Origin: Clostridia bacterium
Lineage (GTDB): Bacteria > Bacillota > Clostridia > TANB77 > CAG-508
Assembly (NCBI GenBank): GCA_051891195.1
Contig: JBJFEZ010000020.1
Coordinates: 1 to 51,702 of the forward strand
Length of the DNA stretch: 51,702 nucleotides
Direction of reading: 5' to 3'
How positions within the stretch are numbered: position 1 is the first letter of the stretch; every line of letters begins with the position of its first letter. Under the pieces are notes generated by a model, which worked only from the letters and a program-made list of their open reading frames with translations, searched no databases and was not told the DNA's origin. Both the position numbers and the translations under genes were made by a program. Of the stretch, positions 1 to 3,388 are shown piece after piece.

Positions 1-274
1 AACAGAATACGGAACAGAGAAGGCTTACTGGCTCGCTTCTCGCGGTGTCGTAGCTAATTCTGACTTTGCTGGCTTAGGCCCGGGAGCTGTTTACTCAGGA
101 GGTGGGATGACCTGTGCGGTTAGTTGCGACGGCGGCTTTGACTCTGACGGCGACTCTGACGTTGGCAGTTTGGCGGTGCGCCCCGTAGTTTGTCTAGACC
201 CTGCAGTCACAGTTGACCAAATACAAAAAATAGCAGACCAACCAGATTCTTGGGGAACTATAGAAGAAGAGTAG
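1..274 (+). CDS. DGR target protein, C-terminal fragment (5' end outside window); CLec-type C-terminal domain
   Basis: Frame +2 is open from base 2 to TAG at 272-274: TEYGTEKAYWLASRGVVANSDFAGLGPGAVYSGGGMTCAVSCDGGFDSDGDSDVGSLAVRPVVCLDPAVTVDQIQKIADQPDSWGTIEEE*. It contains the VR. YWLxSR...AVRPVV is typical of DGR target CLec domains. Absent from the ORF track because no start codon lies in the window. Confidence 0.9.
   Translation, partial: TEYGTEKAYWLASRGVVANSDFAGLGPGAVYSGGGMTCAVSCDGGFDSDGDSDVGSLAVRPVVCLDPAVTVDQIQKIADQPDSWGTIEEE
29..188 (+). repeat. DGR variable region (VR)
   Basis: Ungapped 160-nt match to 1193-1352 (offset 1164). By hand count there are 23 mismatches, 22 at TR adenines (15 A>G, 7 A>T, 0 A>C) and one T>A at 76/1240. 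Ends in the GC-rich GGCGGTGCGCCCC. Confidence 0.97.
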
Positions 275-360: not shown

Positions 361-813
361 ATGGGAATTGTAAATATAGTAAAAAATATAAAACAAATTC
401 ACTCAAAAGACATTGTTTTAATTCGCATAGGTAAATTTTTTTATACATATGGGAAAGATGCATATATTTTATCATATTTGTTTCAATATAAATTAATGAA
501 TATTGAAGGTGAAAACGTATACTCTTGCGCTTTCCCTGCACAGTCTTTTTCAAAGGTAATTGCCCACATAGAAAATAAAAGAATAAATTATATAGTGGTA
601 GATAAAAGAAACAATTATGATATTGAAGAAAAATCTGACAATAAAAATTTAAATACATATGATGAACAGTTTGAAAAAGCAAAAAAATATGTGAACTTAA
701 AAATTAGAATAGAAAATATATCATATTATTTATTAAAACATATATACGATGAAAAGACTATACAAAAAATAAGTCAAATGGAAGAAATTATTAATGAAAC
801 AAGAAAAGTTTAA
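361..813 (+). CDS. MutS domain I-like DGR accessory protein (MSL-type)
   Basis: KQIHSKDIVLIRIGKFFYTYGKDAYILS...CAFP resembles the MutS N-terminal mismatch-binding domain (K...D.LL.FR.GDFYE.F..DA...GVP). Lies between VR and avd; RBS AAGGA. Confidence 0.75.
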   Translation: MGIVNIVKNIKQIHSKDIVLIRIGKFFYTYGKDAYILSYLFQYKLMNIEGENVYSCAFPAQSFSKVIAHIENKRINYIVVDKRNNYDIEEKSDNKNLNTYDEQFEKAKKYVNLKIRIENISYYLLKHIYDEKTIQKISQMEEIINETRKV

Positions 814-1144
814 AATTATACAATTTATTAGAGAATTTATTCTATATATAGATAACAATTTAGATAATTTCCCTAAAAAAGATATTGAACTAAAAAACAA
901 AATAAGAAATATAAGTTATGAATTACTGGAATTATCATATAAAGCTAATGTAACTTCTAACATAGAATATAAAAGAGACTTACTAGAAGAAATAATTGCA
1001 AAAATAAAAGTTATAGACTTTTTACTAAACCTATGTTATGAAAAACAAATTATAAACAGTAAAAGATATGTAAAATTTGGAGAAAAAATGGATGATATTT
1101 TAAAATATACATTGGGTTGGATAAAATCTATAAACCAAACTTAA
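794..1144 (+). CDS. avd: DGR accessory variability determinant (Avd-like four-helix bundle)
   Basis: 116 aa, predicted helical, with FPK near the N-terminus and C-terminal ...LGWIKS. Immediately upstream of the TR, the canonical avd position. Confidence 0.85.
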   Translation: MKQEKFKIIQFIREFILYIDNNLDNFPKKDIELKNKIRNISYELLELSYKANVTSNIEYKRDLLEEIIAKIKVIDFLLNLCYEKQIINSKRYVKFGEKMDDILKYTLGWIKSINQT

Positions 1145-1192: not shown

Positions 1193-1352
1193 AGGCTCGC
1201 TTCTCGCGGTGTCGTAGCTAATTCTGACAATGCTAACTTTGGCCCGGGAGCTGTTAACTCAGAAGATGGGATGACCAATGCGAATAGTTGCAACAACGAC
1301 TTTAACTCTAACGGCAACTCTAACGATGACAGTTTGGCGGTGCGCCCCGTAG
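1193..1352 (+). repeat. DGR template repeat (TR)
   Basis: Adenine-rich copy of the VR with 12 AAY codons in the VR frame and 40 adenines, of which 22 differ in the VR. Followed by an IMH*-like diverged tail (CTTCTATAAAC versus VR TTTGTCTAGAC). Confidence 0.97.
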
Positions 1353-1513
1353 CTTCTATAAACTGTGGTTATGTAATTATAAATTGCATAAGAGATAATA
1401 TAGAAACAAACTAATGTCCTTTTGCTAAAAAGCAATAAACAAAAATAGATAAATTTATTTGTTAGTAATAAATTTAAAATTTGTGAAAGGGAGTAAATTT
1501 TAGAACTATTTTT

Positions 1514-1537
1514 AAGTAGCTAATTGCTACTTTTTTT
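1514..1537 (+). terminator. Intrinsic terminator ending the avd-TR transcript
   Basis: AAGTAGC-TAATT-GCTACTT followed by a T-run on +; abuts the RT stop codon. Confidence 0.7.
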
Positions 1538-2513
1538 AATTATTTATAAATTTATTTAAACTTTGTTGGACTTTAGAAGGACATAAATGTTTATAACACG
1601 CCATACTACTTAAAATGCTACATAAATTTATATAACCACTTTTATATTGAAAAAGTTTTTTATTTAGTTTTCTACTAACATTACGGTATCTAACATATTT
1701 TCCTTTTTTATTTCTTCCTAAAAAAGTAAAATTATTATTACTAGTATAAATTCTGCTTTTAGAGTTTAGTGTTAATTTTTCTTTACTTAAAAATTTTTGA
1801 ATTTCTAGTAAACAATATTTTAAATATGATTTTGATTGATGAAACAATAAAAAATCATCTTGATATCTAACATAATATTTAATTTTTAATTGTTCTTTAA
1901 CAAAATGGTCAAAATCATTTAAATAAAAAATGGCTAATACTTGACTTGTCATATTGCCAATACTTAAGCCTGCTTCATCACTATCTATAATAGAAAAAAC
2001 AATATTTAGAGCATCTTTGTCTTTTATTTTTCTCTTTAATTTTTGCTTTAAGATATTATGATCAATACTAGCAAAAAATTTGCTTATATCACATTTTAAA
2101 ATATAATACTTTTCATATTTTGTTCTACATATCTTATGATAGTTTGTAGCCAACTCTACTCCCTTTTTTGTTCCCATATTTTTTCTGCTTGCAACATTTA
2201 CATCTACTAAGCAAGGCAACAAAGCTGGATACAAAATATGTCTACTAACTAAATGATTAATAATTTTATCATGCATAGTTTGGCTAACAATACGCCTTTG
2301 CTTAGGCTCATAAATAGTAAAAACATTATAAGGTCCAACAACATAATTTTTATTTTTTAAAGTAGAATAAACCCTAGAAACATAAATACATTTATATTCT
2401 CTATAATTACGTACTTTTCTTTTATTTCTGGTATTTTTACAAATTTCATCAAATGCATCAAATATATTTTCAAGACAATAAATATTTTCATATAGATTAC
2501 TTTTTCTTTTCAT
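1536..2513 (-). CDS. DGR reverse transcriptase
   Basis: 325 aa. Motifs EPKQRRI, LKCDISKFF, GLSIGNMTSQ (DGR-type IGxxxSQ), YVRYQDD and FLG. No maturase or endonuclease domain. Confidence 0.95.
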   Translation of the reverse strand: MKRKSNLYENIYCLENIFDAFDEICKNTRNKRKVRNYREYKCIYVSRVYSTLKNKNYVVGPYNVFTIYEPKQRRIVSQTMHDKIINHLVSRHILYPALLPCLVDVNVASRKNMGTKKGVELATNYHKICRTKYEKYYILKCDISKFFASIDHNILKQKLKRKIKDKDALNIVFSIIDSDEAGLSIGNMTSQVLAIFYLNDFDHFVKEQLKIKYYVRYQDDFLLFHQSKSYLKYCLLEIQKFLSKEKLTLNSKSRIYTSNNNFTFLGRNKKGKYVRYRNVSRKLNKKLFQYKSGYINLCSILSSMACYKHLCPSKVQQSLNKFINN

Positions 2514-2525
2514 TTTATCACCACT

Positions 2526-2942
2526 TTAGTTAATAATTTTATATAATTTCTGTTGTATTGTATATAAAAACTCATATGCTTGGCTAATAGAAAGATCATT
2601 AATATTTGTTTTTAAAATTTTGTCAACAATACATTTTAAGTCCTCGTTGTGAATATAGTCATTAGATGTCAAAGAACCGTCATTTTCTAAAGAGACAATT
2701 TCAATATTATAAGGGGTATCTTTTAAAAGATTTAAATATTTTTGCAAAGAGTTTATAGGAAATCCACACTTTACTATGGTTTCATTTAAATTTCCTAATT
2801 TTAAATTTAAATAATTAGACATAACTTTAGCATCATTATCAATAAAAATAAAAAATAGTCCTACTTTAAATAGATAAAATGTGTTTGGTTTATAATTAGA
2901 ACTGCTCTTTAACTCTTGATATTTTTTATATATTTTACTCAT
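2526..2942 (-). CDS. Mini-MutS-like protein (domain I plus MutS C-terminal-like helix pair)
   Basis: YQELK...YLFKVGLFFIFIDNDA...KCGFP resembles MutS domain I. C-terminal ILKTNINDLSISQAYEFLYTIQQKL resembles the MutS C-terminal oligomerisation motif. Start set at ATG 2942 after GGAGG. Confidence 0.75.
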   Translation of the reverse strand: MSKIYKKYQELKSSSNYKPNTFYLFKVGLFFIFIDNDAKVMSNYLNLKLGNLNETIVKCGFPINSLQKYLNLLKDTPYNIEIVSLENDGSLTSNDYIHNEDLKCIVDKILKTNINDLSISQAYEFLYTIQQKLYKIIN

Positions 2943-3048
2943 ATGTACCTCCATTTTTTATTATAAAAAATTTTGAAAAGATTCTGTAAACATTGATACA
3001 AGCTTTAATAAATTTATATATTTTACATATATTGGTATACTATATGTA

Positions 3049-3077: not shown

Positions 3078-3160
3078 GAGATAATCTTATATGTTAATAT
3101 ACTATATATATGTATAGCAAATACAATAAAAAATAAGTATCTTACAATGTGGAGGAAATT

Positions 3161-3388
3161 ATGAAAAATTTTGGAAGAGTAGATATGACTTTAGATGAAT
3201 ATTTAAAAAAACATAAGATAAGTAAGTCTAGTTTAACAAGAAAAACAGAATTGCAGTATAGCCAAATTTTAAGGTATTGTAGAAATGAAGCTCAAAAAAT
3301 AGATTTATCAATATTAGCTAAACTATGTACGGTTTTAGAATGTGACATAACCGACATATTAAAATTAACAAGAGGGAAACTAGAATAA
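3161..3388 (+). CDS. Cro/CI (XRE)-type HTH transcriptional regulator
   Basis: LDEYLKKHKISKSSLTRKTELQYSQILRYC...IDLSILAKLCTVLECDITDIL; GGAGG precedes ATG 3161. Confidence 0.85.
   Translation: MKNFGRVDMTLDEYLKKHKISKSSLTRKTELQYSQILRYCRNEAQKIDLSILAKLCTVLECDITDILKLTRGKLE

Follow-up and report, generated by a model that had tools for sequence, protein, structure and literature searches.

The last ~37 residues of MSL-1, a small protein encoded next to the reverse transcriptase (RT) of a diversity-generating retroelement (DGR), are confirmed by profile comparison to be homologous to the C-terminal dimer/tetramerization domain (CTD) of MutS. The gene lies in the window, a 51,702-nucleotide stretch that constitutes contig JBJFEZ010000020.1 of the Clostridia bacterium assembly GCA_051891195.1. 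The locus is a DGR and the ORF represents the published MSL/Msl (MutS-like) accessory family, neither of which had been recognized in the first-pass annotation of this DNA.

The DGR cassette is distributed over both strands. On the plus strand, the 3' end of the target gene (2..274) is an open-ended ORF whose 5' part lies off the contig; it carries the variable repeat (VR; 30..199) at its 3' end, and a Pfam search with the 90-aa target-gene piece gave no match. It is followed by MSL-2 (361..813; 150 aa), a paralog of MSL-1 with a MutS_I match at an E value of 5.7e-9, and by avd (794..1144), which overlaps MSL-2 by 20 nt and whose 116-aa product matched bAvd (PF22296; E value of 5.6e-12) and NF033474 (E value of 3.4e-12, below the cutoff of that model). 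The template repeat (TR; 1194..1363, plus strand) is a 170-nt direct repeat that is 85% identical to the VR. When the two copies were compared over 1194-1356, 21 of the 24 differences fell at TR adenines, and the copy at 1194-1363 was designated the TR because the differences sit at its adenines. Three differences are located off TR adenines, namely, T/A at 1240 (VR 76), C/T at 1353 (VR 189), and C/G at 1356 (VR 192), the latter two being near the 3' boundary. On the minus strand, MSL-1 (2526..2954, with the stop codon at 2526-2528) precedes the 325-aa RT (1536..2513), which matched RVT_1 with an E value of 1e-16 and a group II RT-like model with an E value of 5.2e-24, the latter below the family cutoff. 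Thus, the locus combines an RT, a TR/VR pair with A-to-N differences, and a target ORF carrying the VR at its 3' end, as expected of a DGR.

The MSL-1 stop codon and the RT ATG are separated by 12 nt, with a Shine-Dalgarno-like GGTG sequence in between. The first-pass annotation had described MSL-1 as coexpressed with the RT, and cotranscription as read from this gap and the GGTG sequence agrees with that description. The overall layout is convergent, with MSL2-avd-TR on the plus strand and MSL1-RT on the minus strand; since the TR, MSL-2, and avd lie on one strand and the RT and MSL-1 on the other, expression of the cassette requires two convergent transcripts. Between the two units, at 1446-1558, the DNA contains AT-rich inverted repeats. 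Divergently oriented and ~190 nt upstream of MSL-1, a Cro/C1-type helix-turn-helix (HTH) protein is encoded at 3149-3388 on the plus strand (HTH_26, E value of 3.7e-16), a possible regulator of the MSL-1/RT operon. Among the six cassette and flank ORFs scanned with Pfam, which extend up to position 3388, no HRDC match was found.

The MSL-1 ORF encodes 142 aa. Its probable true start is Met5 (position 2942), which gives a protein of 138 aa, as indicated by 98 homologues, most of them beginning with MSK, and by the database copy; residues are numbered according to the 142-aa ORF throughout. MutS domain I occupies residues 9-91 (2682..2930, minus strand), as delimited by Pfam and borne out by an own-genome scan and Foldseek. 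The Pfam MutS_I match has an E value of 4.4e-9 and scores 37 bits versus a cutoff of 20.6, and the NCBIfam full-length MutS models matched MSL-1 exclusively through their N-terminal positions 3-83. An AlphaFold2 (AF2) model built from an alignment of 47 homologues (A2) had a pLDDT of 92.2 and a pTM of 0.81 and consists of the domain I fold followed by two helices, at residues 97-115 and 123-141, with a pLDDT of >90. In a Foldseek search of the PDB with this model, 54 matches with E values of ≤0.001 were obtained, exclusively to MutS/MSH proteins and all via domain I, the best being 1ng9_B (E value of 2e-5); the top matches superposed with an rmsd of ~2 Å over 82-93 columns. A whole-model search of this kind is dominated by domain I and hence speaks to domain I rather than to the tail. 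The matched entries include, by title, E38 mutants bound to a G.T mismatch. The pI of MSL-1 is 7.7.

Phe-X-Glu is the mismatch-recognition motif of MutS domain I, and Glu38 of MutS authorizes repair. In MSL-1, the Phe is present and the Glu is replaced by Ile, which leaves the MutS1 motif incomplete: when MSL-1 is aligned with E. coli MutS chains, F34 is the equivalent of E. coli Phe36 and is invariant in the family, while I36 occupies the Glu38-equivalent position, where Ile is conserved in at least 90% of members. The Phe of MutS domain I stacks on the mismatched base (PMC3384296). MutS1 domains II to V, including the ABC ATPase, are absent from the 142 aa of MSL-1, and inspection of the linker by eye revealed no convincing beta-clamp-binding motif of the QLxLF/Y type. 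The earlier depiction of the protein as a MutS with its whole middle deleted is thus upheld by Pfam, hhalign, and AF2, which together yield domain I, a short linker, and a CTD-like tail, with domains II to V missing.

The CTD-like helix-loop-helix of MSL-1 comprises residues 106-142 (2529..2639, minus strand), as defined by profile comparisons and the AF2 model; the peptide quoted in the first-pass annotation corresponds to residues 109-137. A tail HMM made from the last 42 columns of A2 was run on the complete set of 7,951 six-frame ORFs (≥40 aa) from the 1.13-Mb host genome, and the top non-self match was residues 833-870 of the 870-residue host MutS (15.1 bits; E value of 0.0078). When applied to 30 Bacillota MutS proteins, this HMM placed its best domain within 28 residues of the C terminus in 29 of them, and at equal database size, the domain E value was <0.05 in 9 of the 30, including the host protein. 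By hhalign, the MSL tail aligned with the MutS CTD alignment over 33 columns with a score of 45.7, a P value of 1.7e-11, and a probability of 97%. Comparison of the family alignment A2 with an alignment of 49 MutS tails (A4) gave a probability of 95% and an E value of 3.7e-8 and mapped MSL-1 residues 106-142 onto the last 33 MutS residues. Furthermore, when the full MSL family was compared with full-length MutS by hhalign, exactly two matches emerged, one in domain I (P value of 4.7e-7) and one in the tail (P value of 1.2e-5). The resemblance to the MutS C-terminal helix-loop-helix that had been noticed by eye therefore stands, both in these profile alignments with MutS C termini, which had been suggested as a check, and in the two helices of the AF2 model.

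A generic amphipathic helix-loop-helix, low complexity, or the composition of an AT-rich genome might produce such a likeness by chance in so short a segment, and several searches were indeed weak. BLASTP with the MSL-1 tail segment was not significant (11.2 bits; E value of 45), hhalign of the MSL family with the host MutS as a lone sequence recovered domain I and not the tail, and phmmer with MSL-1 against the PDB returned no MutS match whatsoever. A profile search of the PDB with A2 matched MutS chains through domain I, with the E. coli tail in register but at 0.2 bits, and in the reciprocal search of the host ORFs with the MutS CTD HMM, MSL-1 ranked 3rd with an E value of 0.15. MSL-1 is a diverged family member in which the TP of the MutS loop has become SI, the position equivalent to E. 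coli P839 being Ile, and this divergence accounts for the reciprocal rank and E value and for the 0.2 bits of the E. coli tail. Identity between MSL-1 and MutS is ~24% in domain I and in the tail alike. Moreover, the MSL-1 loop follows the same pattern as the loop of its own host MutS, K-x-N-[IL]-N-[DE]-L-[ST], and in several MSL representatives the loop is almost identical to the LTP-type loop of the host-lineage MutS.

We consider chance resemblance highly improbable. The hhalign score of 45.7 compares with a mean of 8.3 (standard deviation, 1.8; maximum, 12.4) in 200 column permutations and with 8.5 for the reversed profile. When the MSL tail was run along a 930-column, largely helical alignment of full-length MutS, the best columns were 872-904 (score of 46.2), whereas the runner-up region scored 15.3, and the helical hairpin of MSL-2, which comes from the same genome, reached only 11.8. 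The position of the match at the extreme C terminus, constant in 29 of the 30 MutS proteins, likewise speaks against chance. Finally, an HMM built from MutS CTDs only (A4) was applied to the best 150 MSL cluster representatives and scored at least 15 bits in 52 and at least 10 bits in 75 of them, with a maximum of 45.7 bits and all matches being C-terminal; in the host genome, its best score outside MutS was 13.8 bits among the 7,951 ORFs. At the level of sequence comparison, this result is the strongest single piece of evidence for the homology of the tail.

The AF2 model of MSL-2 (pLDDT of 89.5) has helices at residues 100-126 and 131-145 after domain I. When its C-terminal hairpin was compared by hhalign with the MutS CTD and the MSL-1 CTD, the scores were 11.8 and 8.1, respectively, neither of them above noise. 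MSL-2 keeps the Phe (F26), the Glu position being Tyr in this copy, and has a pI of 9.1. MSL-2 thus shares the predicted layout of MSL-1, i.e., domain I plus a two-helix hairpin, but lacks a detectable MutS CTD.

Relatives of MSL-1 were found in 80 public genome loci, nearly all from MAGs of gut Clostridia. An RT was present within the stored flank of MSL-1 in 70 of the 80 loci. The full set of MSL1, RT, Avd, and MSL2 was detected in 15 loci and MSL1 with RT alone in 54, a count obtained with a single-sequence Avd query that may miss Avd; in one of these 54, locus L081, the gap between MSL1 and the RT holds an Avd (bAvd, E value of 2.8e-19). MSL1 was alone in 10 loci, many of which are truncated by contig ends. 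The family is large and frequent in small-genome gut Clostridia, with 302 cluster representatives at an E value of ≤1e-10 and 2,859 at ≤0.001, the latter set probably including MutS proteins. Seven homologues (P0009, P0011, P0016, P0026 to P0028, and P0031) are called at 199-203 aa with an N-terminal extension of ~56 aa, which may reflect miscalled starts or be real; in P0027, MutS_I is the sole Pfam domain. A further protein from a metagenome library (P0347; 2,323 aa) has four MutS_I domains (E value of 2.2e-54) together with DUF285 repeats and an ArdC N-terminal match that falls just short of the cutoff (22.4 versus 22.6 bits) and would be a different, non-DGR use of a stand-alone MutS domain I.

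The host itself encodes an intact MutS of 870 aa (P0101; L004:374-2983, minus strand), and the MutS_I matches in its genome are this one full MutS and the two MSLs, with no others. The first 50 of the 80 genomes with an MSL were searched for MutS, and 49 gave a match at an E value of ≤1e-50. In 6 of the 50 MSL-bearing MAGs (G135, G137, G146, G156, G160, and G166), the mutS match contains in-frame stops or is split, which may represent assembly errors or decaying mismatch repair (MMR) genes. In E. coli, the clamp-binding motif lies in a poorly conserved stretch of the MutS CTD (residues 801-822), the other part of which is a conserved helix-loop-helix (residues 823-853); the CTD stabilizes the dimer and allows tetramers to form (PMC1636413, PMC3783165). 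Just upstream of its helix-loop-helix, the host MutS carries QLDLY, replaced in its relatives by QLSLF or QFDMY, as seen by eye; the QLDLY sequence fits the clamp-binding motif position within E. coli residues 801-822. Across the 46 genomes in which the MutS tail was readable, mean pairwise identity was 0.77 for the host MutS tail, 0.33 for the cognate MSL-1 tail, and 0.55 for MSL-1 domain I. Covariation of the two tails was examined in the same 46 genomes; the host tail hardly varies, so only the rates of divergence can be compared.

We tentatively favor, at a little less than even confidence, the idea that MSL-1 is a self-paired, nonsignaling mismatch binder that shields the cDNA:VR heteroduplex from host MutS/MutL. 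MSL-1 would self-associate through its helix-loop-helix, generating a pair of domain I heads that retain the base-stacking Phe without the Glu, the ATPase, or the MutL-recruiting parts. The absence of these three features would make it incapable of signaling repair. According to models of retrohoming, the cDNA:VR heteroduplex should be rich in mismatches; the heads would bind the mismatch-dense heteroduplex of adenine-mutagenized cDNA and parental VR in the absence of repair signaling, and with the heteroduplex shielded from host MutS/MutL, more retrohoming events would persist as mutations. The invariance of F34 and the Ile at the Glu38-equivalent position are in line with such a role, as are the intact host MutS and the MutS matches in nearly all MSL-bearing genomes examined. 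When mutS was knocked out in a Bacteroides DGR host, VR mutagenesis increased 5- to 10-fold with an unchanged pattern, consistent with all-or-nothing repair (bioRxiv 10.1101/2024.11.15.621889), and DGRs engineered in E. coli are combined with dominant-negative MutL or a mutS deletion. The stabilization of MutS dimers by the CTD also favors self-pairing, and the fast divergence of the MSL tail next to a near-fixed host MutS CTD fits what would be expected of a self-pairing module.

Several points weigh against shielding. In MutS, the DNA is additionally held by the clamp domains, and domain I by itself may have too little affinity for DNA to shield anything. The CTD of MSL-1 itself is diverged (TP to SI) and the single-sequence tests were weak, and the loops of some family members that are nearly identical to that of MutS hint at a constraint from MutS itself rather than from self-pairing. 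In addition, MSL proteins are rare among DGRs (16 of 372), and MutS was dispensable for the Bordetella phage DGR to retrohome, both as reported in PMC5758913.

A second possibility builds on the suggestion of the first-pass annotation that the protein might co-oligomerize with host MutS as a dominant negative: the MSL-1 tail may plug into host MutS and locally poison or retune it, either as a dominant negative or by blocking tetramer-dependent rejection of heteroduplexes. MSL-1 could take the position of one of the two paired MutS tails, or an MSL dimer could sit on the MutS tetramerization surface. Such docking is suggested by the tail being a true homologue of the MutS oligomerization module, by the loop pattern that MSL-1 has in common with its host MutS, and by those family members whose loop is nearly the same as that of MutS. 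The substitutions D835R and P839E in the loop of E. coli MutS abolish tetramers and yield stable dimers, and tetramerization may matter for antirecombination (PMC3783165); tetramers are also better activators of incision than dimers (PMC12704291). A complex prediction that paired residues 93-142 of MSL-1 with the tail of the host MutS (A4 residues 12-55), run without controls, gave ipSAE values of 0.31, 0.33, and 0.30 against a mark of 0.32 and speaks neither for nor against docking. Among the points against docking, the difference in conservation between the host and MSL CTDs across the 46 genomes indicates that no fixed docking surface is kept in the clade, the P839-equivalent residue is Ile in MSL-1, and a global dominant negative would turn the host into a mutator. 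Docking on MutS accordingly strikes us as unlikely, if worth keeping in mind.

The tail might instead dock onto the DGR machinery, i.e., the RT-Avd-TR RNA assembly or MSL-2, with MSL aiding cDNA integration instead of countering MMR, for example, by recognizing or stabilizing the mismatched annealing intermediate of cDNA and VR. The tight operon linkage, as MSL1-RT or as MSL1-Avd-RT in L081, points in this direction, as do three reported fusions of an RT with a weak MutS_I motif (PMC5758913). The two paralogs of the same layout, found here and in 15 of the 80 loci, bring to mind the asymmetry of the MutS dimer, where the Phe of one subunit alone contacts the mismatch (PMC3384296). However, MSL-1 and the RT occur without a detected MSL-2 in 54 of the 80 loci, so MSL-2 is not a general partner, and the homologous module is known for contact between one MutS and another. 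We regard a role in DGR assembly as rather doubtful. A broader formulation, to which we give similarly little credence, is that MSL-1 is a DGR-encoded inhibitor of host MMR made by deletion of the MutS middle: a tail-paired dimer would use its MutS-derived loop to dock on the MutS tetramerization surface, or would replace a MutS tail, its nonsignaling heads would sit on cDNA:VR mismatches, and heteroduplex rejection would be switched off only where the DGR acts, with MSL-1 and MSL-2 perhaps forming an asymmetric mini-MutS.

DGR mutagenesis must pass through a mismatch-dense heteroduplex, and with host MutS cutting the yield 5- to 10-fold in Bacteroides, the question arises of how natural DGRs cope. 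An MSL protein with a head and a pairing tail turns the label "MutS-like" into a specific, testable mechanism, that of a decoy or of a MutS-docking factor. Such a protein also raises the prospect of a natural, compact modulator of MMR for use in place of the dominant-negative MutL on which engineered DGR and recombineering systems now rely.

Wu et al. (NAR 46:11, PMC5758913) described the MSL class in 2018 as Architecture D, comprising small neutral proteins (112-283 aa; pI of 7.2 ± 1.7) in 16 of 372 DGRs that reportedly always occur with avd and never with HRDC. Like these proteins and the Bacteroides Msl (bioRxiv 10.1101/2024.11.15.621889), MSL-1 is small, homologous to MutS, and located in a DGR cassette with avd, and HRDC is absent from the ORFs scanned. 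In the passages of the DGR literature that were searched, together with the supplementary table of PMC5758913, we found no mention of a CTD in MSL proteins, and those passages yielded no functional data for any MSL. The homology given there in print is to MutS or its mismatch-recognition domain, whereas the tail of MSL-1 corresponds to the MutS CTD as well. The present cassette also has two convergent paralogs, of which MSL-1 has the CTD and MSL-2 does not, compared with the architecture TG-MSL-AVD-TR-RT listed in the supplementary table of PMC5758913.

In comparison with bacterial MutS, MSL-1 has the fold and sequence of domain I, the stacking Phe, and the extreme C-terminal helix-loop-helix in the same N-to-C order. 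Unlike MutS, it is devoid of connector, lever, clamp, and ATPase domains (~730 residues), has Ile for the Glu of Phe-X-Glu, shows no evident clamp-binding motif, and carries SI rather than TP in the loop. The proposed functional analogue is MutL E32K, the dominant-negative protein used in recombineering and in engineered DGRs, where MMR is suppressed so that integration of mismatched single-stranded DNA or cDNA survives. MutL E32K is a laboratory mutant of MutL, whereas MSL-1 is a natural, element-encoded fragment of MutS, for which MMR suppression is a proposal. Altogether, judged by its sequence, MSL-1 is a new member of the published MSL family, the domain annotation of which is sharpened by the CTD.
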